Of a stretch of 32,000 nt of DNA, positions 3,926 to 29,010 are shown one piece after another; positions within the stretch are counted from its first letter, which is position 1, and the number at the start of each line of letters is the position of its first letter. The notes below the pieces were generated by a model. The model was not told the origin of the DNA. It made no database searches and was given only the letters and a program-made list of their open reading frames with translations. The stretch lies in contig NC_021219.1 in NCBI RefSeq assembly GCF_000392435.1, positions 930,001 to 962,000 on the forward strand, in the 5' to 3' direction. The position numbers and the translations under genes were made by a program. This DNA comes from Candidatus Saccharimonas aalborgensis. GTDB taxonomy: Bacteria > Patescibacteriota > Saccharimonadia > Saccharimonadales > Saccharimonadaceae.

Positions 3926-4003
3926 AACACCTCTCCCTACTCTCTTTGTCTATAACTTATTTTAGTATAGCGTACCCGCATGCTTCGCTTCGGCGTAGAT
4001 TTT

Positions 4004-4082
4004 ACAATACGAAAAAGGCCACCGAAATGGCTCAGGCTGAGATGCTCATACTAAGCTATCTCGGCGAACCTTTTTCGGTGGC
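4004..4082 (-). terminator. 79-nt long-hairpin intrinsic terminator module, copy 1 (repeat family with 4462-4540)
   Basis: Read on the minus strand: GCCACCGAAA ... TTTCGGTGGC (10-bp outer stem, with further internal pairing GGTTC/GAGCC and GAGATAGC/GCATCTC), followed by CTTTTTCG. It begins 1 nt after the stop of the 4084-4308 gene. 78 of 79 nt are identical to copy 2. Confidence 0.65.
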
Positions 4083-4083
4083 T

Positions 4084-4308
4084 CTAGAAGAACGTCCAGG
4101 AGGCCATGGCCTCCAGCCACTGCCAGCGGGTGGAGAAGATGAATCCCCACAGGGTGGTGATGAGGAAGGCGTCGGCAATCGCCGTAACGGCGAAGCCGAA
4201 CACCCCCAGATCACCCCCCTCGGCTGCTCCGCCACCCGCGAAGCAGATGATGAGTGCCATGAGAACGATCCAGAACAGCGGGTGGTTGATCAAAATCAGG
4301 ACGAGCAT
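4084..4308 (-). CDS. Small hydrophobic membrane protein (74 aa, two predicted TM helices)
   Basis: MLVLILINHPLFWIVLMALIICFAGGG...FGFAVTAIADAFLITTLWGFIF. Strong SD TAAGGAGAGG lies 5 nt upstream of the ATG at 4308. The longer ORF-track start at 4398 lacks an SD. Confidence 0.6.
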   Translation of the reverse strand: MLVLILINHPLFWIVLMALIICFAGGGAAEGGDLGVFGFAVTAIADAFLITTLWGFIFSTRWQWLEAMASWTFF

Positions 4309-4461
4309 GTGCCTCTCCTTACGACGACGGGTCAAGCAAGGACGATCATTGTCATTATAGCATAAGCTATAATTTTTGTCAAGTACTATACCTTCCACAT
4401 GGGTTACTATTACCTGTGGAGATTCTTTTGGAGATCTAATGTAAAATTCAGCGTATATCTC

Positions 4462-4540
4462 ACAATACGAAAAAGGCCACCGAAATGGCTCAGGCTGAGA
4501 TGCTCATACTGAGCTATCTCGGCGAACCTTTTTCGGTGGC
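4462..4540 (-). terminator. 79-nt long-hairpin intrinsic terminator module, copy 2
   Basis: Same sequence as 4004-4082 with one difference (g4511 versus a4053). That difference restores a GCTCAG/CTGAGC pairing. It lies 18 nt downstream of the stop of the 4558-4719 gene. Confidence 0.65.
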
Positions 4541-4557
4541 ACGTCAGAGTATGACGA

Positions 4558-4719
4558 CTATCGCCGACTGCGGTCTTTTAGCGATGCTGTGATTGTCGCC
4601 ACAGCTCCCGCGCATCCTATGCCAATGATGATTGGCGCAGGGTTACCGGTAATCAAGCTAACCGCTAGCAAAACAGCTAGGGCTAGGATACCGATTACGG
4701 TCAAGACGCTCATTCTCAT
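4558..4719 (-). CDS. Small hydrophobic membrane protein (53 aa)
   Basis: MRMSVLTVIGILALAVLLAVSLITGNPAPIIIGIGCAGAVATITASLKDRSRR. SD AGGGAGG lies 9 nt upstream of the ATG at 4719. The ORF-track start at 4752 is a TTG that falls within the SD region. Confidence 0.55.
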   Translation of the reverse strand: MRMSVLTVIGILALAVLLAVSLITGNPAPIIIGIGCAGAVATITASLKDRSRR

Positions 4720-4812
4720 GCCGACAGACCTCCCTTCAAAAAAAGTCCTCAATGTGACGTGAATATCATATACAATAGCTATATGTTTGTCAATTTCTGA
4801 TAAATATAGTAG

Positions 4813-5328
4813 CTACAGTGCCGCTTCAACCGCCGCCCAGGTTGCGTCGGGATTATCCTCGGGGATGATGATAGTTACTTGGTCGCCGATATTGATGCGG
4901 AAGTACGTCACGCTAGCGAGCAAGATACGGTATTCTCTGGCTTGAGCCTCGACATAGTAGGCGCCATCGTGTTGTGTGAGGGTGCCGATGATTTGTTTAC
5001 GAGGGATCGGGCCGATTTGTTTGTAGATAAAACCGCCATCGTCTGCGATGGTAAGTTTTAGGATGTCACCTTCAACGAGCTTTGATTTGCTTGCGTAGTT
5101 TGCTGGTACGGGGTAGCTCTTGCCGTCGGGACCGATCATAACCTGTCCATCAAAGACACCTTCAACTACTTTACCACTCACTTCCTCGCGGCTGTTGGTT
5201 GGTGTGACGACACTACCGTCATCACCGATGATGCTGATGAGGAGCTCTTTGGCGGCGGCAAGGTTTGTTTCCGCCTCTGTAATAAGCGACTTTAGTCGCT
5301 TGACTTGTTTTTCTGGTAACTCAGACAT
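4813..5328 (-). CDS. Hypothetical protein (171 aa). N-terminal helix followed by a beta-rich region.
   Basis: Clean ORF with its own consensus promoter upstream. I recognise no motif. Confidence 0.7.
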   Translation of the reverse strand: MSELPEKQVKRLKSLITEAETNLAAAKELLISIIGDDGSVVTPTNSREEVSGKVVEGVFDGQVMIGPDGKSYPVPANYASKSKLVEGDILKLTIADDGGFIYKQIGPIPRKQIIGTLTQHDGAYYVEAQAREYRILLASVTYFRINIGDQVTIIIPEDNPDATWAAVEAAL

Positions 5329-5403: not shown

Positions 5404-5517
5404 GACTTTTTCTTTCCACAGGCTACTGAGAGGTCGTGTAGATTTCGTTGTAATAAACACCATACATGATGTATTACAAATAAGTGAATGCTGCTTCTAC
5501 CGGTGTATCTATACACA

Positions 5518-5578: not shown

Positions 5579-5962
5579 TTAGGCGAGCTCGACAGTAGCG
5601 CCGGCTTCTTCAAGGGCTTTTTTAGCCGTCTCAGCTTCGTCTTTGCTTGCTTTTTCTTTGATGGGGCTTGGTGCGTTGTCGACAAGTGCTTTTGCCTCGC
5701 CAAGTCCAAGACCAGTGATTTCTTTGACTGCCTTGATGACAGCAACTTTTTGAGCACCAGCATCCTTGAGGGTGACGGTGAATTCAGTTTTTTCGTCAGC
5801 AGCGGCACCTGCATCACTACCGGCAACTGGGCCAGCGGCAACGGCAACTGCAGCAGCAGCTGGCTCAATGCCATAGTCGTCTTTGAGGATATTTTTGAGT
5901 TCGTTTACTTCGAGGACCGTGAGCTTTGTCAGCTCCTCGGCCAATTTCTTTACATCTGCCAT
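5579..5962 (-). CDS. rplL: 50S ribosomal protein L7/L12
   Basis: 127 aa. Ala-rich hinge [12 protein letters not shown]-terminal domain [24 protein letters not shown]...EAGATVEL. Confidence 0.97.
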
Positions 5963-6013: not shown

Positions 6014-6538
6014 CTACGCGGTCGCTTTTGCCTCAATACCATCGAGAAGCGCATGGAGGTTGCCTGAAAGCGCGTTGGTAACATCGTGTACCGGAGAAAG
6101 TAGCTGAGCTACGACTTCGGCAATCAACTGATGTTTGCTTGGTAGGCTTGCAAGTGCAGTGACATCGGCGCTGCCCTGGGCAATACCCTCGCCACTGAAA
6201 CCGGCGACTAATTCAAGAGCCGGATGAGTTTTTGCAAACTCGTGCAATACCTTTGCGGGCATGACTTCGTCGTCAGTGCTAAATGCATAGAGCAGTTGAC
6301 CAACAAGCGCACTGGTGTCAGCGTTCTTGTAGATGTCCTGTGAGCCCATTGCGACACGGACGAGGCGGTTTTTGACAACCTTGATGGTAACGCCTGCTTC
6401 GCGAGCAGCACGCCGCAAGTCTTGGAGGTCTGCGACGCTGATGCTTTGGTACTTGGCAACAGCTGTCCCCTTCGCATTTGCGAAAAGCTGACTCATTTCA
6501 CTTACCAAAGCTTGTTTCTTGTCTTTAGAAATTGCCAT
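6014..6538 (-). CDS. rplJ: 50S ribosomal protein L10
   Basis: MAISKDKKQALVSEM... VADLQDLRRAAREAGVTIKVVKNRL. The ATG at 6538 is preferred over the ORF-track start at 6571. It lies directly upstream of rplL. Confidence 0.93.
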   Translation of the reverse strand: MAISKDKKQALVSEMSQLFANAKGTAVAKYQSISVADLQDLRRAAREAGVTIKVVKNRLVRVAMGSQDIYKNADTSALVGQLLYAFSTDDEVMPAKVLHEFAKTHPALELVAGFSGEGIAQGSADVTALASLPSKHQLIAEVVAQLLSPVHDVTNALSGNLHALLDGIEAKATA

Positions 6539-6655
6539 GTGAGTGGTCAATCCTTTCAGAAGTAAGATCATCTCCGATGATTGTTATTGAGCAATCACGA
6601 CGAGATCATACGTATTAGCTTTGATATTTTTCGACCATATTGTTAAGTTACGATA

Positions 6656-6781
6656 ACCTAAATCTCATCAATTCCCCACTCCAGACAACCGGCCCGCCGC
6701 TAACTAAATCAGCCTTCGCTCTTGGCGGGCCTTGGCCCATCAGGGCCAACTGTCTGTCGGGGGAAGTGTTGAGATTTAGGT
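6656..6781 (+). repeat. Structured inverted-repeat element, copy A (MITE-like or structured RNA)
   Basis: Perfect 12-bp terminal arms ACCTAAATCTCA / TGAGATTTAGGT. Inner pairings: CAGACA/TGTCTG, GGCCCGCC/GGCGGGCC, and TTGGCCC-ATCA-GGGCCAA. The core is near-identical to 6951-7076 and 18503-18627. Confidence 0.8.
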
Positions 6782-6950
6782 ACGACATTCAGGTAATGAA
6801 CTAAAAAAGCTTTGGTTCATCACCAAAGACTTGCGGAAAAAGATGAATTTCCCCTCGGTAGCGAATTAAGCAATTTCTTGCAGCCACTGTCTTTAGGTAA
6901 TGTCTAATTTCTAGTATAGCATGGACGGAGCTACTTTTCAAGTTGCAAAA

Positions 6951-7076
6951 ACCCCGAGTCTCATCACCTCCCCACTCCAGACAACCGGCCCGCCGCTAAC
7001 TACATTAGCCTTCGCCTTGGCGGGCCTTGGCCCATCAGGGCCAACTGTCTGTCGGAGGAGGGGTTGAGAGTCGGGT
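6951..7076 (+). repeat. Structured inverted-repeat element, copy B
   Basis: Same core as copy A. The terminal arms differ in sequence but remain complementary (CCCGAGTCTCA / TGAGAGTCGGG, 10 of 11 pairs). Confidence 0.8.
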
Positions 7077-7104
7077 GAAATATATGCTATACTACCACTT
7101 AGAA

Positions 7105-8037
7105 ATGAGTGCAAGTCGACCAAGCTCCCCAGAGGAGCCACTCCCTCGTTTTTTTCCGAATTCTGCTCCGGAGACGGTAAAAGATGTCATGCGCTCCCCC
7201 TTGGTGCTCGATAAACCACCCTTTAAATATCACCACTTATCGCCGACACCACTTGATCCTCATCTCCTCCAGATCAAAGGCGGACCTCGCTATAACGAAC
7301 ATGCATTGACGTATATGGTTGATGCACCGCGTCAGGTGAGTATGAGTCGATTTGCTTCAGATGAGCAGATAACCTCATGGATAGCCTATCGTCTTGCAAC
7401 GGTGCCAAAAGGAAACATTGATAGCCTGGGTTCCGATGTCGTAGATACGACGTGGTTATCGGTTCTCTCGGAGATTATGGCTCAACATGAGCTCAAACAG
7501 CATCGTAATGATGCAGCGGTGCGGCTGCTTTTTGATGATACGACCCCTATTACTCAAGATGAAGCCGAAGAACTGATGCAGATCAGGGCGGGTATTGCCA
7601 CGCCAGAAGTAATCCTCAGGTTTTTTGCTCAGCATCCCGAACTTGGCGGCGTGGAACTGATGAAAGCAACCCGTGCCTTGCAACCGGAACAAATACGGCA
7701 GGCAAGAGATGAGTTTTTGGGTATGCTGGCCACATCATCGGAGACACTCGACATTGAGTTTCTCGACGAGCCTCCCTATCGTCGTATCCAGATTGAAGAC
7801 CCGAGAATTATCGTGCTCAAGACTCGGCTGGCGACTGTGGCATACAACGGCACGCTGATGGAAGTTGTGATGCGCGATAGCGGCGTGATTCTTGATCAAG
7901 CTCAAGACGACCTTACTACCTCCTACATAACAGGCCGAGACGAGGAGGGGCATCCTCTCGTGTGTGTCGCGCCCATCGCCATCACTGCTTACGCAAGGAT
8001 AGCGGCGGTACAGGTTCAGGATGAAGCGAGTAGTTGA
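7105..8037 (+). CDS. Hypothetical protein (about 310 aa)
   Basis: Long ORF. The ORF-track start at 7027 lies inside repeat copy B, so the ATG at 7105 (MSASRPSSPEEP) or at 7084 is more likely. No motif recognised. The 3' end overlaps convergent tmk by 22 nt. Confidence 0.6.
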   Translation: MSASRPSSPEEPLPRFFPNSAPETVKDVMRSPLVLDKPPFKYHHLSPTPLDPHLLQIKGGPRYNEHALTYMVDAPRQVSMSRFASDEQITSWIAYRLATVPKGNIDSLGSDVVDTTWLSVLSEIMAQHELKQHRNDAAVRLLFDDTTPITQDEAEELMQIRAGIATPEVILRFFAQHPELGGVELMKATRALQPEQIRQARDEFLGMLATSSETLDIEFLDEPPYRRIQIEDPRIIVLKTRLATVAYNGTLMEVVMRDSGVILDQAQDDLTTSYITGRDEEGHPLVCVAPIAITAYARIAAVQVQDEASS

Positions 8038-9420: not shown

Positions 9421-10203
9421 TTAAGGACGACGATCGAGTGGACTGGTGATGGGGTGTGGAACTTCAGCTCCCTCACGAATGCGCTTGATAATGGTGCTCG
9501 TTTTCCAATTATCACCAGTTTGGGGGTTGAGAACGTAGGGATCGATCCCATCGGCGATTAGTACTGGGTTGAGACCGCGATCTCGCGCTTCTTGGACAAC
9601 TGCGGGTTGTTCGTCAAAGACGACCAGTGTATCGAGCAGCCCGTGACGTGCCAAAAACTCTGCGAGGATAAGGGATGATTCGAGGCAGGTTTCTTGATGA
9701 ACCGGATCACCCTCAACGGTGACTAGGTCGATTACAGGAAGAAGTCCAATAGTGCTATCAAAGCTATAGCCTGCGACTCGGTTGGCGCGTGTTTCCCATG
9801 GATAAATCGGACGCGGTACGCCTCCTTTTGTTTCGACACCACCCTTTTTTGCTGCAACTTTGTAGTCAGCGTCGACGGTGACTACAAGTGAAAGTGCGGG
9901 CTGGGCAACTGCAACTGCCAACGTCTCGGCAGTAATAGGATAGTTATGACTATGCAAAAAAGCCCGTGCACCGAGCAGGCGCACATGTCGTAAATACCAT
10001 TCATGATTATCGTGCGGGACATCAAAAGCACCATCAACCAGTGTAATATGGCTATGACGTATCTCGCGAAGGTGTCGAAATGAGGCAAGCACTATTGCAT
10101 CCGTATACTCGGGTTCTGGGTAGAGCAGACGCTCGGGCGCACGCAGGGTCGGCCCAAATACTTCAAATACATCTGGATTTCTATCACCTAACTCATGCGC
10201 CAT
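9421..10203 (-). CDS. Cytidylyltransferase-superfamily (HxGH) nucleotidyltransferase-like protein, paralog 1 (RfaE domain II/TagD-like)
   Basis: 260 aa. DGAFDVPHDNHEWYLRH has Asn in place of the motif Gly. RPIYPWETRANRVAGY resembles the RPI...ER segment of RfaE-II/TagD. About half of the residues match the adjacent paralog. Confidence 0.6.
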   Translation of the reverse strand: MAHELGDRNPDVFEVFGPTLRAPERLLYPEPEYTDAIVLASFRHLREIRHSHITLVDGAFDVPHDNHEWYLRHVRLLGARAFLHSHNYPITAETLAVAVAQPALSLVVTVDADYKVAAKKGGVETKGGVPRPIYPWETRANRVAGYSFDSTIGLLPVIDLVTVEGDPVHQETCLESSLILAEFLARHGLLDTLVVFDEQPAVVQEARDRGLNPVLIADGIDPYVLNPQTGDNWKTSTIIKRIREGAEVPHPITSPLDRRP

Positions 10204-10258: not shown

Positions 10259-11041
10259 TTAATCAAGGGGGCTGGTGATGGGATGTGGTACGGGTTCACC
10301 TTGAGCACGACGAATAAGATCACTACTGCTCCAGGGCCTATCGGTTTGTGGATTGAGCCCAAATGGTATGTCGTCGGGGTTGATGATGATGGGGTTGAGT
10401 CCTGCTTCGGTGGCTTGGGTCAGAGCGGCCGAATGTTCTTTATTGATGACAACATTGTCGAGGAGGTCTCTCTCAGCGAGAAATATAGCGAGAGACACAA
10501 ATGACTCGAGCGCAGTGCCTCGGTGAACGTGGTCGCCCTCTACCGTTACTAGGTCAGTGGTGGGCACATAAAGCCCTGATGCTGGCGCAGTTTCAAACGT
10601 ATAGCCAGCTACCCGATCCGCACGTGCCTGCCATGGATAAATGGGGCGCTGAACACCTCCTTTTTCGGCAAATCCACTCTTTACATGGGCGACTTTATGA
10701 TCTGCGTCGACGGTGATTGCAGTGATAACGTCAGGAGAAATAAGCATATTGCGCACCATATCGGGAGTTGGCTCAATGCTTCGTGCTATGAGTGATGCAG
10801 CGGCGCCAAGGGCTCGCGTATGGCGAACCATCCATTCGTGGCCGTCGTGTGGTACGTCAAAAGCTCCATCCGCAAGGGTGATATTGGTATGATCACTGCG
10901 TCGACGGAGTGAAGAAAAAACAGCCGTAACAGCTTGGTCGGTCTCTTCTGGTCTTGGATAGAGTAAACGATCTGGCGAACGAAGGGTTGCGCCAAATACC
11001 TGAAATACGTCCTGCTTGTCAGGGGTACCACCAAATGCCAT
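10259..11041 (-). CDS. Cytidylyltransferase-superfamily (HxGH) nucleotidyltransferase-like protein, paralog 2
   Basis: 260 aa. DGAFDVPHDGHEWMVRH is a canonical H-x-G-H motif. RPIYPWQARADRVAGY is present. It shares the C-terminal VPHPITSPLD with paralog 1. Confidence 0.65.
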   Translation of the reverse strand: MAFGGTPDKQDVFQVFGATLRSPDRLLYPRPEETDQAVTAVFSSLRRRSDHTNITLADGAFDVPHDGHEWMVRHTRALGAAASLIARSIEPTPDMVRNMLISPDVITAITVDADHKVAHVKSGFAEKGGVQRPIYPWQARADRVAGYTFETAPASGLYVPTTDLVTVEGDHVHRGTALESFVSLAIFLAERDLLDNVVINKEHSAALTQATEAGLNPIIINPDDIPFGLNPQTDRPWSSSDLIRRAQGEPVPHPITSPLD

Positions 11042-11049
11042 AACTACTC

Positions 11050-11514
11050 CTATCGGCTCATCAATATGTGAGGTTTACGTAGGTATAATACCATATCTAT
11101 CCGCTTTTTGTCAAGTTTTAACAGATGAGTATGGAGATGAGGCACGGATTTTGTAATATTGTCCGGCGAGCGAGTATATAGCGAGTACCCATCTGATTCA
11201 TAGGCGCATACGAGATCGATGTATTCGGCACGTTCGTCACGGTTCATCTCGTCCATCGAGAGCAGATGGCGCTTGGGTACAATCATGTATTGTTCTTGTA
11301 CTTTGCACCCCTCCCAGATGTCGTAGCCAAATTGATTATGTGTGAGGCGAAAATGCTCAAATTCTCTGACTACCTGGGGACTTTCTGAGTTGAATCCGCA
11401 AAATGCACAGGAGTTGGATTTGACGGTTTTTTTGTATGCCTGGTAAACGGCCTCGTTTTTTGGTTTGCGCGTCATGGGACCGGCCTGGAGAAATCGTCGT
11501 TTCATTGGCTCCAT
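11050..11514 (-). CDS. HIT (histidine triad) family protein, paralog 1
   Basis: CAFCGF start motif, IVPKRH, and histidine triad VPHLHTHLL. It is the first gene of a tightly spaced minus-strand operon that runs through tmk. Confidence 0.75.
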   Translation of the reverse strand: MEPMKRRFLQAGPMTRKPKNEAVYQAYKKTVKSNSCAFCGFNSESPQVVREFEHFRLTHNQFGYDIWEGCKVQEQYMIVPKRHLLSMDEMNRDERAEYIDLVCAYESDGYSLYTRSPDNITKSVPHLHTHLLKLDKKRIDMVLYLRKPHILMSR

Positions 11515-15195: not shown

Positions 15196-16194
15196 TTAGT
15201 TTACTTGATTTTCGACTTTGATGCCTGGCCCCATAGTAGTGGCGATGGCAGTTGATTTCACATAGATACCCTTGAGGCTCGATGGTTTTTGGCTCTGTAA
15301 GCTGCCAAAGAACGCTCGGGCGTTTTCCTCGAGTTTGTTGGCGCCAAATGATACCTTGCCAATACTGAGGTGGATTGTTGCTTGTTTGTCGACACGGTAT
15401 TCTACTTTTCCGGCCTTTGCTTCGGTCACTGCCTTTGCAACATCAGCGGCAACCGTGCCGCTCTTTGGATTTGGCATGAGGCCTTTTGGCCCGAGGAGAC
15501 GGGCGTATTTGCCCAGTCGTGGCATATAGGCAGGGGTAGATACGAGAGTATCAAAGGCTATTTCACCCTTATCGAGCTGCTTGAGGAATGTTTCGTCACC
15601 GACGATATCAGCGCCAGCTTTTTTGGCAGCGTCGTGTTCGGCTTCGGGAGCAAACACAGCCACACGCACTGTTTTACCGGTGCCATTTGGCAACGTCACG
15701 GTTGCGCGGATGTTTTGATCGGCCTGGCGAGGATCGACACCGAGGCGGACGTGCACTTCGACGCTGGCATCAAACTTACTTGGGTTGGTCTTGGTGGCAA
15801 GCTCCAATGCTTCGGCTAGGGTGTAAACCTTTGCAACTTCGACGAGTTTGGCGACTGCTTGAAACTTTTTGCCACGGCGTTCGATCAGTGGTCGAACCTT
15901 TGGCGCAGGACCTTTCTTTTCGTGAGCAACTGCATCACCCTGGGCGCTGGTGTCGTGTGCTTCTTTGCGCGCTTCTTTTACGGCTTTTTCTTCAGCCTCT
16001 TCGAGCGCCTTTTCGCTGCGCTTACCAGCTTTGGCAACGTCAGCTTTGCGTTCAGCAACTACTTCTTTATCTGCGGCTGGCTTCTTTGTCTTTGCGTCTG
16101 CGATTAGACTCTCGAGATCAGCGATAGTCGCCTTTGCGGGCACCTCGATCTTTAGTTTTGCTGCTTCTTCAATAAGTTCGGCTTTTTTTGCCAT
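15196..16194 (-). CDS. rplA: 50S ribosomal protein L1 with an N-terminal extension of about 100 aa
   Basis: The core is classic L1: FDASVEVHVRLGVDPRQADQNIRATVTLPNGTGK...LGPKGLMPNPKSGTV...IATTMGPGI. The ATG at 16194 (MAKKAELIEE) has SD AGGAGAT. The ORF-track start at 16242 is less likely. Confidence 0.92.
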   Translation of the reverse strand: MAKKAELIEEAAKLKIEVPAKATIADLESLIADAKTKKPAADKEVVAERKADVAKAGKRSEKALEEAEEKAVKEARKEAHDTSAQGDAVAHEKKGPAPKVRPLIERRGKKFQAVAKLVEVAKVYTLAEALELATKTNPSKFDASVEVHVRLGVDPRQADQNIRATVTLPNGTGKTVRVAVFAPEAEHDAAKKAGADIVGDETFLKQLDKGEIAFDTLVSTPAYMPRLGKYARLLGPKGLMPNPKSGTVAADVAKAVTEAKAGKVEYRVDKQATIHLSIGKVSFGANKLEENARAFFGSLQSQKPSSLKGIYVKSTAIATTMGPGIKVENQVN

Positions 16195-16265
16195 ATCAGT
16201 ATCTCCTGCGGTAGTAGCGGTGATTCGATCACCTCCCGACATTACAGTTGTATGATGCTAGTATA

Positions 16266-17323: not shown

Positions 17324-18031
17324 ATGAACACGTCTCGTCGCGTTGTTGGCCGCTACGCGGCCCTGGGACTCGTCCTGGGCCTCGTCGTGCTTGGCGTTTT
17401 TTGGGTGTTGTTCCAGCCCCTCCGCGGGGCTAGCACCCAGAAGCCACCGCTCGGCTCGGCCACGGTCACCCAGACTGTGGCCCCGACCAGCGAGACCACC
17501 ATTCCGGTGACGTCCTCGACTGCCCCAGTGAGTACCTCGCCGACCACCGTCACCGCGACGACGTCGCAGACGACGGTTGCCCCGACGACATCCGCCGCCG
17601 TACGGACCACCAGCACCGCTCCGGTGGTGTCGCGGGTGTTTAACCGTTACACCATCAACTTCCCCGCTGGTACGACGATGGTCGGTAGCCAGACCGGCAA
17701 GTGGGGTGAGGTCCGTACGACCTACCACACCCCGGCCGGCGAGCAGATCATGACCATCGCCTTTTCCGCCGACTTCCGTTGGCGGGACTACAGCGAGGAG
17801 CTGACGGCCAAGTGCCCGAGTGCCACCGAGGGCCCGCAGACCCCCATCAACTGGGGTGGGTCCTACAAGGGTGGCTACACCGCCTGGGACCGCTCCAAGT
17901 GCGACCAGGGACCGTTGGTGACGTTCACCACCTTCTCGGAGGTGGAGAACGTGGCGGTGGTGCAGTTCAGGGTGGCCAAGCCGGCCCCCTGGCTGGTCAG
18001 GGCCATCGAGAAGGCCGACTGGAAGGAGTAA
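17324..18031 (+). CDS. GC-rich membrane-anchored or secreted protein. N-terminal TM helix, Thr/Ser/Pro-rich linker, globular C-terminal domain.
   Basis: MNTSRRVVGRYAALGLVLGLVVLGVFWVLF, then TVAPTSETTIPVTSSTAPVSTSPTTVTATTSQTTVAPTTS, then a Cys-containing domain. SD GGAAGGAAAA is present. A 60-nt sample at 17461-17520 is 40/60 G+C. Confidence 0.7.
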   Translation: MNTSRRVVGRYAALGLVLGLVVLGVFWVLFQPLRGASTQKPPLGSATVTQTVAPTSETTIPVTSSTAPVSTSPTTVTATTSQTTVAPTTSAAVRTTSTAPVVSRVFNRYTINFPAGTTMVGSQTGKWGEVRTTYHTPAGEQIMTIAFSADFRWRDYSEELTAKCPSATEGPQTPINWGGSYKGGYTAWDRSKCDQGPLVTFTTFSEVENVAVVQFRVAKPAPWLVRAIEKADWKE

Positions 18032-18070
18032 CGTCCTTCCCGGGACGCGCATCATCACTTCCTTCCACTC

Positions 18071-18108
18071 ACCCCTCGTCCGTACACTCGGACGAGGGGT
18101 CTTCTCGT
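18071..18108 (+). terminator. GC-rich hairpin terminator after the 17324-18031 gene
   Basis: ACCCCTCGTCCG - TACACT - CGGACGAGGGGT, a perfect 12-bp stem. The tail CTTCTCGT has only a weak U tract. Confidence 0.55.
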
Positions 18109-18229
18109 ATGATGGGGTATATAAAATCACTATAACGAAGAAACCCGTCGAGAGACGGAGCGAGCCGATGGTTCGGCGGGCTTCTTCGTCCTTCGACGGG
18201 TAGGGGTCAGTGGTGAAGTGAGCTGTTGC

Positions 18230-18424
18230 TCACCTCGCGGCGTTGTCGTCCGCGAGGCCTTCGGCGTTACCCCACGTCTGCTCCAGCAGACGGATGTTGC
18301 GCAAGATTGCGGTCTCTCTCTGGCGAGAGAAGCGGGAGTAGCGCTGACGCAGCAGGATGGCGGTGCCAGCCGCCACGGCGGCGCCCATGCTGACACCGAC
18401 GATGACCTTGGTGTGCTTGCTCAT
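18230..18424 (-). CDS. GC-rich small protein (64 aa) with one hydrophobic helix
   Basis: MSKHTKVIVGVSMGAAVAAGTAILLRQRY.... SD GAGGAA is present, and the promoter TTTACA-17-TACAAT lies upstream. Confidence 0.5.
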   Translation of the reverse strand: MSKHTKVIVGVSMGAAVAAGTAILLRQRYSRFSRQRETAILRNIRLLEQTWGNAEGLADDNAAR

Positions 18425-18467
18425 GAAGTGTTCCTCATCTCTCTGCTCGGAAAAACTGACAAAATAT

Positions 18468-18496
18468 ATTGTAGAACAAAAGAATTATATTGTAAA
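18468..18496 (-). promoter_or_regulatory. Sigma-70-type promoter for the 18230-18424 gene
   Basis: Minus strand reads TTTACA - 17 nt - TACAAT. Confidence 0.45.
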
Positions 18497-18502
18497 TACT
18501 AC

Positions 18503-18627
18503 ACCCGACTCTCACCCCCTCCCCACTCCAGACAACCGGCCCGCCGCAAACTGATTAGCCTTCGCCTTGGCGGGCCTTGGCCCATCAGGGCCAACTGTCT
18601 GTCGGGGGAGGGTTTTGAGATTTAGGT
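18503..18627 (+). repeat. Structured inverted-repeat element, copy C
   Basis: Same core as copies A and B. The left arm ACCCGACTCTCA equals the reverse complement of the right arm of copy B. The right arm TGAGATTTAGGT equals the right arm of copy A. Confidence 0.8.
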
Positions 18628-18632
18628 TCATA

Positions 18633-18669
18633 CGAAAAACGCCTCCGAAATCTATCGGGGGCTTTTTCG
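18633..18669 (-). terminator. Bidirectional intrinsic terminator downstream of the 18686-18922 gene
   Basis: CGAAAAAC GCCTCCGA AATCTA TCGGGGGC TTTTTCG. The 5' flank ATACGAAAAACGCCTCCGAAAT matches the 79-nt module ATACGAAAAAGGCCACCGAAAT at 20 of 22 positions. Confidence 0.7.
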
Positions 18670-18685
18670 TCCTCACTATCTCGAG

Positions 18686-18922
18686 CTAGCACACGCTGAG
18701 AAGCGTCCAACCACTTCCCTGAGCTCGCAGACAAAAGTTTTGGCTGCCGTCACTCATGGTGACTGTACTCCAGATACGTTCACCGCGACGGATGGTGGTG
18801 CGGATACCTCTATCGATAAAACAATAGGTGCGACCTCGCCATTCCATGCGCGTCGGGTAGGTGCTCATACCGGGCCCAAACCCTACAGCGGTGATAGAAA
18901 CAGGACTGTTAATTGATTTCAT
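18686..18922 (-). CDS. Small hypothetical protein (78 aa)
   Basis: SD AGGAGAG lies 7 nt upstream of the ATG. Sequence ...YPTRMEWRGRTYCFIDRG...GSGWTLLSVC. Its own terminator follows. Confidence 0.55.
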   Translation of the reverse strand: MKSINSPVSITAVGFGPGMSTYPTRMEWRGRTYCFIDRGIRTTIRRGERIWSTVTMSDGSQNFCLRAQGSGWTLLSVC

Positions 18923-19207
18923 AGCATACTCTCCTATGGATTAGTGTTTGATAAGTGGTGGAGTATGAACGACAAGGCCTTTTGTCCGCCCCACTTTGTA
19001 GCGGTACAATCGTTTGCCTGAAGTCGTGAGTTTGTGGAGGTTCACCCGCGTGGATGAGCCTGGTGCGATAGACGGTTTGGCTGTGGAAACGCTCTTAGCT
19101 AAGAACGAGTACGACCATAACCTATATATAGTATAGCGCGGCGATTAGGTGCGTCGTCAACACTAGTAATTTATGGGTTTTGTGGTGAAAACAGATCGTG
19201 AAAATAC

Positions 19208-20062
19208 TTAGGAATAATCGCCGCCCGTGATGTCGTAATATGCCTCGAGTGTTTTGAGGTTTTTGGCTTTCATATCAAGAGCAACGGTGCGGCCAACATA
19301 TCGCCAATGCCACGGTTCGGGTGAATAGCCAGTGATTGGGGTCATGCCCTGTTGATACCGTTCAATGAACCCATACTCAGCAGCGTGAGCTTGCAGCCAG
19401 GTATACGCTGGGGTGCTGGCAAAACACTCCAGCGCGCAATTTCCCGCCTTGACATCTATCGCCAGCCCCGTTTGGTGCTCGCTATAGCCAGGGCGCGCGC
19501 GTGTACTATCGGCCAAGGCCGTAGTTCCGGTGATATTAACACCTTCATTGTAGGTCGCTATCTGGTTGTCATAGGAACGAAACGCACTGGTAAGCGAGAT
19601 AGTTGCGCCAGTTGACCTGATAGTAGAAAGAAGTGACGTAAGTTGCCCAGCCATCTCTTGGCGAACGAAGAACCCTTCGACAAGTGTAAGGTTTTGTGGT
19701 GTCCAGGACTGTGGCTCTATACAGTGCTTTTTGTTTACTACCACTGTGAGCGTCGCTGGTGATGAGATATCACAGGGAGTTTCGGTCGGCACCGGATCAT
19801 GTGCGACGAACTGTTGGAGTTGGGTTGCCGCTTGTCTCTCACGCGATTGGGCTTTGTCAAGTTTTTGCTGCAAGAGCGTCCGTATATTTGCATCGATGAG
19901 CGCAAAGTCTCGCTGCTGAGCTGCATGTCGCTGTGTATCTTGGGCTCGCTGCCACAGATCGATACAAAAAAGTCCACCGAGCAGAAGTGCGGTGAACAGT
20001 ACGAGCGCTATGGGCAGTCGAGGGATACGTTGAGAGGCAGCAGATTTCTTCTTTGTTGGCAT
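19208..20062 (-). CDS. D-alanyl-D-alanine carboxypeptidase, VanY / peptidase M15B family, membrane anchored
   Basis: LTSAFRSYDNQ, ARPGYSEHQTGLAIDV and EPWHWRYVG motifs, with an N-terminal TM helix. The ATG at 20062 (MPTKKKS) is preferred over the ORF-track start at 20140. Confidence 0.85.
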   Translation of the reverse strand: MPTKKKSAASQRIPRLPIALVLFTALLLGGLFCIDLWQRAQDTQRHAAQQRDFALIDANIRTLLQQKLDKAQSRERQAATQLQQFVAHDPVPTETPCDISSPATLTVVVNKKHCIEPQSWTPQNLTLVEGFFVRQEMAGQLTSLLSTIRSTGATISLTSAFRSYDNQIATYNEGVNITGTTALADSTRARPGYSEHQTGLAIDVKAGNCALECFASTPAYTWLQAHAAEYGFIERYQQGMTPITGYSPEPWHWRYVGRTVALDMKAKNLKTLEAYYDITGGDYS

Positions 20063-20095
20063 TGTTCTTAGTATACCGCTTTTGGTGGGCGGTGT

Positions 20096-20132
20096 GCGCA
20101 GGAAGGGAGTTAAAGTACCTCCCCTCCTGCGC
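20096..20132 (-). terminator. Tail-less GC hairpin after the 20151-20570 gene
   Basis: Minus strand reads GCGCAGGAGGGGAG - 9-nt loop - CTCCCTTCCTGCGC, a 14-bp stem with one G-U pair. No U tract follows. Confidence 0.4.
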
Positions 20133-20150
20133 GAAAACAACCACGCGGGA

Positions 20151-20678: not shown

Positions 20679-20721
20679 GTGGTCGGCGCAGTTCCCCACT
20701 TGGGAGAACTACACCGACCAC
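20679..20721 (-). terminator. Long tail-less hairpin after the 20731-21060 gene
   Basis: GTGGTCGGTGTAGTTCTCCC - AAGT - GGGGAACTGCGCCGACCAC on the minus strand. The stem is about 19 bp including G-U pairs. It lies 10 nt after the stop codon. Confidence 0.4.
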
Positions 20722-21148: not shown

Positions 21149-21225
21149 TGGTCGGGGTGACTGGATTTGAACCGGCGACCTCACCGTCCCGAACGGTGCG
21201 CGCTACCAAACTGCGCCACACCCCG
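21149..21225 (-). tRNA. tRNA-Pro (anticodon CGG), CCA encoded
   Basis: Reverse complement is CGGGGTG TG GCGC AGTTTGGTA GCGC G CACCG TTCGGGA CGGTG AGGTC GCCGG TTCAAAT CCAGT CACCCCG ACCA. This is a full cloverleaf. The T stem contains one C-A mismatch. Confidence 0.9.
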
Positions 21226-22234: not shown

Positions 22235-22268
22235 ACTCGGGTGTCCCAGCACCCGAGTCTTTCTTTAT
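22235..22268 (+). terminator. Intrinsic terminator after cdsA-like gene
   Basis: ACTCGGGTG - TCCCAG - CACCCGAGT followed by CTTTCTTTATCT. Confidence 0.65.
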
Positions 22269-22358
22269 CTGGGTCTCAAAGTCTCTTTTGATTGACAAAA
22301 TACAAATAAAAGTATACTATACCTATACCTAACCCCGAGTAGAATAAGAGGACTCCTT

Positions 22359-23013: not shown

Positions 23014-23439
23014 TTAGTCGGTGACTTCGACGCCCATACTGCGGGCGGTACCAGCGATGACCTTGACCGCACCATCCATGTCGATGGCATTGAGCTGTTT
23101 CATCTTGGTTTCAGCGATTTCCTCGAGTTGTTTACGAGAGATTTTGCCGACTTTCTCGGTGTGCGGTTTGCCGCTGCCTTTTTTGATGCCGATCTTTTCG
23201 CGAATCATGTCGTCAACGGGTTGACCGAGACTTTTCCACGCAAAGGTGCGATCTTCGAACACCTGAATGTGAACGATGACGTCCTTGCCCATCATATCTT
23301 TGGTTGCTTCGTTGAATGGATTGATAAAATCCATCATGTTGAGGCCCCACTGACCGAGCGTGCTTCCGACTGGAGGACCAGCGGTGGCGCGACCTGCGGG
23401 GATGCGGAGCTTCAAGTTACCGATAACTTGTTTTGCCAT
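23014..23439 (-). CDS. rplK: 50S ribosomal protein L11
   Basis: 141 aa. IKLRIPAGRATAGPPVGSTLGQWGLNMMDF...KGSGKPHTEKVGKISRKQLEEIAETK. Confidence 0.97.
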   Translation of the reverse strand: MAKQVIGNLKLRIPAGRATAGPPVGSTLGQWGLNMMDFINPFNEATKDMMGKDVIVHIQVFEDRTFAWKSLGQPVDDMIREKIGIKKGSGKPHTEKVGKISRKQLEEIAETKMKQLNAIDMDGAVKVIAGTARSMGVEVTD

Positions 23440-27987: not shown

Positions 27988-28536
27988 TTAGACTTTTTTG
28001 ACCTGGAGTGCATCGAGCTCGACGGGCGTGTCGCGGCCAAACATGCTGACCATGACCTTGAGCTTACCCTTGGCGGTGTCGATTTCACTTACCGCGCCAT
28101 CAAAGCCCTTGAATGGTCCATCGGTGATGTTGACCACTTCTCCCGGCTGGAAGTCGATCTGATGCTTGGGGTCTTCGACACCCATACGTTTTTTGATCTT
28201 TGAGATCTCTGCGTCTGAAACAGGCGTTGGCTCAGTACCACTACCGACAAACCCAGTCACGCCAGGTGTATTACGGACAATGTACCATGTCTCATCGGTT
28301 AGTTTCATCTCGACGAGTACATAGCCTTGGAATATCTTGGCCTCAACGACTTTTCGTTTGCCGTTTTTGATCTGAATCTGCTTTTCCTTTGGCACCATAG
28401 CGTCAAAGATCTTGTCTGCCATATCGACAGCCTGAATACGCTGTTTGATTGCATCGGCGACTTTTTCTTCGTAGCCGCTATAGGTGTGGATTGCGTACCA
28501 TTGACGAGTACCATCATATCGATTCTTGTGTGCCAT
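27988..28536 (-). CDS. nusG: Transcription termination/antitermination factor NusG
   Basis: WYAIHTYSGYEEKV (NGN domain), and the KOW motif FQPGEVVNITDGPFKGFDGAVSEID. Confidence 0.95.
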   Translation of the reverse strand: MAHKNRYDGTRQWYAIHTYSGYEEKVADAIKQRIQAVDMADKIFDAMVPKEKQIQIKNGKRKVVEAKIFQGYVLVEMKLTDETWYIVRNTPGVTGFVGSGTEPTPVSDAEISKIKKRMGVEDPKHQIDFQPGEVVNITDGPFKGFDGAVSEIDTAKGKLKVMVSMFGRDTPVELDALQVKKV

Positions 28537-28537
28537 G

Positions 28538-28879
28538 TTATTTCCTCAAAATAATGTTAAACAAATATTGAAAACCTGCGTCGAGTAGCAAAATAACGAC
28601 GACAAAAAACGCAGTAAAGAGCAGCAGCGCGCCCGTCATGGCCCAGGTGGTGCGCCGGTCTGGCCAGCGAACTTGACGGAGCTCATACCATGAACCCTTT
28701 AGGTACCGCCAGATAGCGAAAAATGGATTGCGAGTACGTCGTACTAGCTTGTCGCCATCGTCACTCACTACCTTCCGTGTCCTTTTGGGCGCTACTGGTT
28801 TTTTTGATTTTTTTGAACCACTATCATTTGCTGTAATGCGCGTGATCTTGGGTGTTGATGATTTTGCTGGTGTCGCCAC
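28538..28879 (-). CDS. secE: Preprotein translocase subunit SecE with a Lys-rich N-terminal tail
   Basis: YLKGSWYELRQVRWPDRRTTWAMTGALLLFTAFFVVVILLLD is the typical SecE core. The start is uncertain: GTG at 28879 (purine-rich SD-like stretch upstream) or TTG at 28933 as in the ORF track. The stop lies 1 nt before the nusG start. Confidence 0.8.
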   Translation of the reverse strand: MATPAKSSTPKITRITANDSGSKKSKKPVAPKRTRKVVSDDGDKLVRRTRNPFFAIWRYLKGSWYELRQVRWPDRRTTWAMTGALLLFTAFFVVVILLLDAGFQYLFNIILRK

Positions 28880-29010
28880 GATAGATTTCCTGCTCTCCCA
28901 ATTAAATAAGTCTGCTTTCTGGCAGACTGTCAAGAGTAGTATATGTCACCTCGAGAACTTTGTCAATAATAAACAGATGGTTCTTATGGTTGCATGTCCT
29001 GGATTTTGTG

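Follow-up and report, generated by a model that had tools for sequence, protein, structure and literature searches.

Why should a non-coding repeat with an elaborate predicted fold stand on both sides of a ribosomal protein leader? This question is raised by a 32,000-nucleotide stretch of the Candidatus Saccharimonas aalborgensis genome (the window), in which an inverted-repeat element occurs twice upstream of rplJ and once more at a distance. The original prediction for this DNA left two options, a miniature inverted-repeat transposable element (MITE) or a structured RNA. The first is sustained by paired empty and filled sites, a 6-bp target duplication and at least 14 sites, while the second finds neither a match in Rfam nor strand-specific pairing. 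The copies are probably members of a family of ~125-bp non-coding, MITE-like foldback elements of the ERIC/Correia type.

The three copies in the window (A, B and C; Table 1) were recovered by sequence reading, by a repeat finder and by alignment as direct repeats, all on the plus strand, as had been predicted. They share the core CCCCACTCCAGACAACCGGCCCGCCGC ... CTTGGCGGGCCTTGGCCCATCAGGGCCAACTGTCTGTCGG, which is invariant in a three-way alignment and bordered by unrelated flanks; the same alignment bears out the G+C-richness of the core and the difference among copies at the long-arm tip. The branched structure proposed earlier is recovered for every copy, a three-way junction assembled from outer arms, a stem of CCCC/GGGG, a closing stem of CAGACA/TGTCTG, a long arm (GGCCCGCC/GGCGGGCC) and the hairpin TTGGCCC-ATCA-GGGCCAA, a perfect palindrome that is invariant in an alignment of 26 copies. 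Folding energies of copies A to C are -65 to -70 kcal/mol on the plus strand and about -74 kcal/mol on the minus strand; z-scores range from -5 to -9 for both strands, and none of 200 shuffles folds as well. The element measures 123 to 127 bp and has no coding capacity, the only open reading frames (ORFs) being spurious ones that cross it. Its 12-nt inverted ends follow the consensus A-Y-C-Y-R-A-R-TCTCA ... TGAGA-Y-T-Y-R-G-R-T, and those of copy A (ACCTAAATCTCA / TGAGATTTAGGT) match at 12 of 12 positions. The earlier statement that the outer arms differ yet stay complementary holds for copies A and B and fails for copy C, whose arms are a poorly complementary chimera of a B-like left end (ACCCGACTCTCA) and an A-like right end (TGAGATTTAGGT). 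Over the 26 copies, the outer helix is 72% Watson-Crick paired.

Evidence that the element inserts as a unit comes from copy A. Three contigs that encode L10 of the same species (L024, L025 and L026) keep copy B and lack copy A, leaving an empty site summarised as ATGTCGTAACTT, and two sister species carry near-identical empty sites. In all five, a single TGTCGT (minus-strand reading) is present where the filled site has two. The duplications described as invisible in the original prediction therefore do exist at copy A, with one difference between the two sides in the window and a perfect ACGACA/ACGACA pair in other strains. These junctions indicate that insertion duplicated the 6-bp target TGTCGT and brought in the whole element with its 12-nt inverted ends, and the single target in the two sister species argues against reading the empty state as a mere deletion. 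The strains without copy A are 97% identical to the window, whereas the A-bearing L008 and L022 are only 94% identical to it. The absence is therefore explained most simply by a later precise excision between the 6-bp repeats, and may alternatively reflect recombination between strains. The idea that the arms were copied from the target and that the core alone is mobile, hinted at by site S4 of the window, was rejected because arm sequence is missing from the empty site of copy A.

At S4, the window holds only a left arm joined to the last bases of a right arm, and L006, L014 and L009 carry a full 125-bp copy at exactly this position. We considered whether S4 in the window is a true empty site; it is better read as what is probably left of a fourth copy after an internal deletion. 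The terminator-like hairpin directly upstream (22237-22266) and a promoter-like TTGACA at 22293 indicate that the S4 copy had inserted between them. Flank matches of 6 bp were scored in register across all sites, with the element ends set by the covariance model described below. The match is 6/6 at S1, 5/6 at S7 (AGAGTA/AGATTA) and at S9 (CAAGTA/TAAGTA, after a one-base boundary correction), 4/6 at S2, S3 and S10, and at or near chance at the remaining sites, a spread that would be expected of one young insertion and many old ones. The comparison of orthologous loci proposed with the original prediction thus gave an empty and a filled state with duplication at copy A; at S5 the flanks were unalignable with the sister species, and at S8 no clean insertion site was found and a strain-specific breakpoint appeared instead. 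The S8 copy (L003 6482-6605) lies 7 nt from this breakpoint, beside an RNase HII gene, and copies at the edges of variable segments (S3 and S8) may mark recombination breakpoints.

The family is narrowly distributed. An invariant 23-mer of the core, searched against 185,579 species representatives, was found in one of them, a Candidatus Saccharimonas aalborgensis metagenome-assembled genome, at 10 places, and a 22-mer matched 15 further metagenome contigs. By nhmmer and flank matching, all matches group into 14 distinct sites (S1-S14) from at least three strains, whose flanking DNA is 94-97% identical to the window. A covariance model scan, also proposed earlier, was carried out over the window and related loci with a model (R1) built from 26 distinct copies, which was run on ~400 kb out of a final ~580 kb of related DNA. 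It found no further copy in the window; ~150 kb from three other species of Saccharimonas, with 81-85% identity in their L10 and Tgt proteins, also gave none. The 22-mer had no match in viral contigs, and blastn of copy A had none among plasmids and phages. Only the same species came back when homologues of the FHA-like neighbour of S9 were sought, and tgt was used in its place. As far as the data reach, the element family is restricted to Ca. S. aalborgensis. Small size, lack of coding capacity, terminal inverted repeats, a target duplication judged against an empty site, and copies dispersed over at least 14 sites with presence/absence polymorphism (S1 and S4) are all features of MITEs that the element displays. 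We also observed that many short metagenome or Logan contigs (L025, L027, L029-L033) end inside the repeat, in copy A or B upstream of rplJ, indicating that the element breaks short-read assemblies.

The two copies beside rplJ bracket the L10 leader, both lying upstream of the gene. Copy A lies, antisense to the transcript, inside the rplJ 5' untranslated region (UTR), where it has the leader's terminator hairpin on one side and the ribosome-binding site on the other. Copy B, kept in every S. aalborgensis strain sampled, occupies the divergent promoter region between two promoter-like sites, and its right arm contributes TTGAGA (7064-7069) as the -35 hexamer of the plus-strand site, which has a -10 TATACT at 7088-7093 and precedes a gene starting at 7105. 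Copy C stands between a terminator-like hairpin (18641-18662) and the minus-strand promoter-like site (18496-18468) of a small gene (18230-18424), inside a strain-variable segment. Collinearity of the window with other strains ends at 20086 (window ~17800-20086 versus L014 2317-4588), and the loci of the other strains contain nothing equivalent to the copy C segment, which also includes a VanY peptidase gene (19208-20140) and a number of small ORFs.

Table 1. Positions and supporting details of the repeat copies, their insertion sites and the features around them. Positions refer to the window unless a contig is named.
Feature	Position or source	Strand	Details
Copy A (site S1)	6656-6781	+	126 bp; covariance model, 151 bits
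Copy B (site S2)	6951-7076	+	Alignment, covariance model
Copy C (site S3)	18503-18627	+	Alignment, covariance model
Left target-site duplication, copy A	6650-6655		ACGATA; ACGACA in L008 and L021
Right target-site duplication, copy A	6782-6787		ACGACA
Filled site of copy A	Window, L008		ATGTCGT[ACCTAAATC...GATTTAGGT]T(A/G)TCGT(A/C)ACTTAA; alignment A3
Empty site of copy A, rplJ-sense	L024, L025, L026		...ATGTCGTAACTTAA...; alignment A3
Near-identical empty sites	Two sister species, L034/L038		ATGTCGGACATTAA and ATGTCGAAACTTAA; alignment A3
S4 remnant	22267-22283	+	17 bp: ATCTGGGTCTCA + AAGTC
Terminator-like hairpin at S4	22237-22266		ACTCGGGTG-TCCCAG-CACCCGAGT then CTTTCTTT
rplL	5579-5962		
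rplJ	6014-6538	-	Ribosomal protein L10; PF00466, E = 1.8e-23
L10 leader RF00557	6794-6915	-	Rfam, 50.4 bits, gathering score 44
rplJ promoter-like site	6913-6941	-	TTGAAA-17-TATACT, TG present; copy B begins (left end) 9 bp away
rplA	15196-16242		
tRNA-Pro	21149-21225		Rfam
rplK	23014-23439		
nusG	27988-28536		
secE	28538-28933		
rve-domain transposase gene, 294 aa	L050 4385-5389		CP064995, another Saccharimonas species; only transposase seen

The position of copy A in a ribosomal protein leader region, the very stable folds and a shared orientation among copies could suggest a structured non-coding RNA family, either small RNAs or cis-regulatory elements, in which the RNA fold is selected and the copies are RNA genes. 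Pairing was evaluated on the 26-copy alignment (A4) with a hand-drawn structure and 500 shuffles. Paired cells made up 91.6% of the total versus 88.5% after shuffling; 13 pairs were changed on both sides versus 7.8 +/- 1.6, a value reached by 1 of 500 shuffles; and the covariation score was 0.134 versus 0.088, reached by none of 500. Complementarity of the element is maintained beyond chance. The significant excess of double changes would fit a selected RNA, but it is also expected from any DNA palindrome under concerted evolution, and mismatches in the outer helix are balanced between G:T (29, wobble on the plus strand only) and A:C (26, wobble on the minus strand only), indicating that neither strand is favoured as RNA. 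Likewise, the element lies antisense, relative to its plus form, to the transcript in six of seven tandem-gene contexts, but this bias is not significant (two-sided p ~0.13), and convergent sites expose both of its strands. Rfam 15, both at the gathering score and at E<=10, returned only the L10 leader and the tRNA, in agreement with the earlier remark that the element was not recognised as any known RNA family, and no internal promoter-like or terminator-like signal was found in it. The empty sites and the 6-bp duplication point to insertion as the origin of the copies; where copy A is missing from a strain, the rplJ leader and gene are still intact; and sister species share this leader and these genes yet lack the family. 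A strand-specific function as RNA finds no support, and we consider an RNA family very improbable.

What, then, keeps the copies so alike? Arms, core and variable tip are 57%, 95.7% and 86% identical, respectively, when sites are compared with each other, and 90%, 96.5% and 88% identical when strains are compared at one site. The arms evolve as site-specific, vertically inherited DNA, while for core and tip, orthologues are no closer than paralogues. The paired variants GCCG/TGGC and GTCG/TGAC recur at unrelated sites and differ between orthologous copies, as do CAGACA/TGTCTG and CGAACA/TGTTCG, and half-converted intermediates are present. A homogenised core with site-specific arms points to gene conversion; the pattern indicates that the middle is probably homogenised in this way and that the edges, too near the homology boundary, would drift. 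The chimeric arms of copy C and the placement of S3 and S8 at the edges of variable segments fit recombination between copies. Compensatory changes can come from selection on the hairpin or from repair of an extruded palindrome templated by the opposite arm, two sources that the data do not separate.

Several points weigh against a MITE-like family. An autonomous partner with matching ends was not found in the scans described below. The target duplication is perfect at one site only and is decayed or absent at most others. The count of ~14 sites is a minimum drawn from pattern-selected loci rather than complete genomes. Conservation is highest in the core and lowest at the ends, opposite to what a young MITE family typically shows, and the conserved core could instead be under selection.

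This last point leads to the view that the element is domesticated, of mobile origin but with a three-way-junction core now kept by selection for host use. Possible uses are a bidirectional terminating or insulating hairpin, REP-like protection of mRNA 3' ends, or a platform for a DNA- or RNA-binding protein. The gene context of the 14 sites, taken from a simple ORF map, bears on this. Convergent genes flank five sites (S5, S7, S9, S12 and S13), where the element is separated from at least one of the two stop codons by 0-10 nt (at S7 and S9, from both by 0-4 nt); another seven lie between tandem genes, and S2 and S8 lie between divergent genes. The neighbours, assigned by Pfam, are housekeeping genes, including tgt, a vut_1 transporter, malic enzyme, atpD, dus and a class A penicillin-binding protein. 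Domestication is favoured by the start of eight of the 14 sites within 10 nt of the stop codon of the upstream gene, by the contrast between core and arms, by pairing beyond chance, by persistence at orthologous sites in a streamlined genome of ~1 Mb, and by the invariant palindrome TTGGCCC-ATCA-GGGCCAA, which is of a kind bound by dimeric proteins.

Against this, the element cannot be an efficient terminator in the orientation of copy A, given the location of that copy within the 5' UTR of the essential rplJ-rplL operon; most copies are not followed by a T-run; and copies A and S4 are dispensable in natural strains. The same convergent pairs also do without the element elsewhere. In the sister species locus L048, tgt and vut_1 overlap by 4 nt at their stops, as do malic enzyme and the neighbouring T2SSE ATPase gene (the two overlaps are at 11254-11257 and 20710-20713), in both cases with no element, and some convergent pairs there thus have no intergenic spacer or terminator at all. 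Reconstruction of S7 and S9 places the insertion in overlapping stop codons, where the 6-bp duplication and the terminal A/T of the element rebuilt a stop codon for each gene, and this explains the zero-length gaps without invoking function. Gene conversion alone accounts for a homogenised centre with drifting edges. Domestication therefore appears unlikely, and we are doubtful of its more specific form, in which the core has been recruited as general-purpose intergenic punctuation in an ultra-small candidate phyla radiation (CPR) genome, as an insulator of formerly overlapping convergent genes or as a protein platform.

For a MITE-like foldback family, the following course of events may be proposed. 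A DDE-type transposase, by now distant or lost altogether, would have moved the element in trans. Insertion involved a staggered cut that duplicated 6 bp of the target. Gene conversion would then keep the centre near-identical among copies as the ends drift at each site, with complementarity between the halves kept by hairpin-templated repair, by hairpin selection or by both. In a packed genome, copies would survive where they are tolerated, such as gaps between promoters and terminators, 5' UTRs (copy A) and formerly overlapping convergent stops, and loss can be either precise, as for copy A in some strains, or imprecise, as at 22267-22283. Effects on the host would be side effects, namely a very stable hairpin added to mRNA when the element is transcribed and, at copy B, a -35 box supplied by the outward-facing TTGAGA.

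A source of transposition was looked for. As previously noted, the window encodes no transposase, and searches of the window together with the gene table of the orthologous locus found no transposase or recombinase, integrase or Y1/HUH transposase in it. A degenerate arm-pattern scan of 380 kb (~60% of the final set) gave chance-level singletons and the S4 remnant only, with no arm-like sequences flanking any larger segment. The rve gene of another Saccharimonas species (Table 1) was tried as part of a parent insertion sequence (IS) and rejected, its ends being unrelated to the element. That gene is flanked by inverted repeats of ~17-39 bp (ATTTCAATAGCTACGTA... / ...TACGTAGCTATTGACAT) and is consistent with an intact IS.

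Other features of the window were recorded alongside the repeat. The genes secE, nusG, rplK, rplA, rplJ and rplL, normally contiguous, form a split cluster interrupted by 4-9 kb blocks of unrelated genes, including an ABC transporter, a VanY-type peptidase, a cdsA-like gene, thyA, folA, dcd and tmk; the separation of rplA from rplJ is also present in sister species. Next to rplL, L008, L021 and L022 carry an extra 1.56 kb (L008 4567-6127) between rplL and a gene for a 171-aa protein, which is absent from the window at 5460-5510. It encodes a 331-aa protein that looks pyridoxal phosphate-dependent (SAGNHARG motif, by eye) and an 82-aa membrane-like ORF, with no obvious transposase among its ORFs.

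A second repeat lies within 3926-4813. Its two 94-nt copies (3989-4082 and 4447-4540) are 95% identical and 458 nt apart, and both fold into a long hairpin (GCCACCGAAA...TTTCGGTGGC). They lie immediately downstream of two small hydrophobic ORFs on the minus strand (4084-4398 and ~4541-4720), one copy per ORF; neither ORF has a Pfam match. Positions 4086-4814 of the window are absent from L008, L021 and L022, and L024 is of intermediate length with one 68-aa gene, indicating that the copy number of the module varies by strain. Its layout loosely recalls small-toxin cassettes. Finally, two adjacent minus-strand genes (9421-10203 and 10259-11041) encode 260-aa tandem paralogues, with 71% nucleotide identity over 129 nt (repeat D2) and no Pfam match in the orthologous locus.

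The structured repeat beside the rplJ leader is thus explained and should not be annotated as a regulatory RNA, and breaks in S. aalborgensis assemblies at these sites find their explanation in the repeat. CPR genomes of ~1 Mb are usually described as poor in mobile DNA; S. aalborgensis nonetheless carries and maintains a foldback repeat family. The sites at overlapping convergent stops provide an example of insertion into a gapless genome, with both stops rebuilt by duplication, and the strain-level presence or absence of copies offers typing markers for S. aalborgensis in wastewater plants.

Among known systems, integron attC sites and REP sequences with their RAYT partners suggest one further explanation, that the element is a site folded as single-stranded DNA for a tyrosine or HUH recombinase. 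The Vibrio VCR attC sites are ~125 bp in size, and like attC sites the element is an imperfect palindrome of similar size, conserved more in structure than in outer sequence, with many copies directly after stop codons; its ends ACCTAAA...TTTAGGT loosely resemble RYYYAAC...GTTRRRY, and S3 and S8 abut strain-variable segments. However, the right ends vary (...TTTAGGT, ...GTCGGGT, ...TTCAGGT), so that the GTT of the R' box and the GTTRRRY motif as a whole are not conserved. The copies are dispersed in both orientations beside housekeeping genes rather than arranged in same-orientation cassette arrays, the window has no integrase and no Y1/HUH transposase, and such recombinases are not known to make a 6-bp duplication on insertion. 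REP/BIME units are 20-40 bp long, often occur as doublets, make no duplication and come with a Y1 transposase, whereas the element, at 125 bp, has about three times a REP's length, forms no REP-like doublets and has no Y1 gene in the window. Both readings were rejected because insertion duplicated the target, no arrays were seen and the window encodes no recombinase, and we regard a site of this kind as scarcely credible.

Generic IS-derived MITEs, such as RUP of Streptococcus pneumoniae and Nezha of cyanobacteria, resemble the element in small size, inverted ends, target duplication, multiple copies, polymorphism and lack of an ORF. Unlike them, it has no parent IS with the same ends in the part of the ~580 kb of related sequence that was scanned (380 kb for the arms, ~400 kb with the model), and its homogenised core suggests upkeep by gene conversion rather than recent bursts. 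The Correia (NEMIS) elements of Neisseria are MITEs of 100-155 bp with well-conserved 26-bp ends, a 2-bp TA duplication and hundreds of copies; they insert near genes, are co-transcribed as hairpins, carry outward promoter hexamers that create hybrid promoters, and supply or rebuild gene ends. The Saccharimonas family differs in its 6-bp duplication, in having its 12-nt ends as the most variable part and in copies numbering in the tens, and agrees with them in its terminal inverted repeats, gene proximity, hairpins within transcripts, outward hexamer (TTGAGA of copy B) and rebuilt gene ends.

ERIC/IRU sequences are imperfect palindromes of ~127 bp that have no coding capacity and no known dedicated transposase, lie in intergenic, mostly transcribed regions, have a conserved centre and vary between strains in their presence at orthologous sites. 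Our element has no sequence similarity to them, is confined to one species in another phylum, the CPR Saccharibacteria, has a documented 6-bp duplication and folds as a three-way junction rather than a single long hairpin. The literature that was searched yielded no account of such repeats in Saccharibacteria or CPR bacteria. The family appears undescribed so far, yet of a well-known kind: in its length of ~125 bp, its imperfect palindromic form over the whole element, its conserved centre, its intergenic and mostly transcribed position, its lack of a known dedicated transposase, its presence/absence polymorphism and its lack of an ORF, it is like ERIC/IRU.

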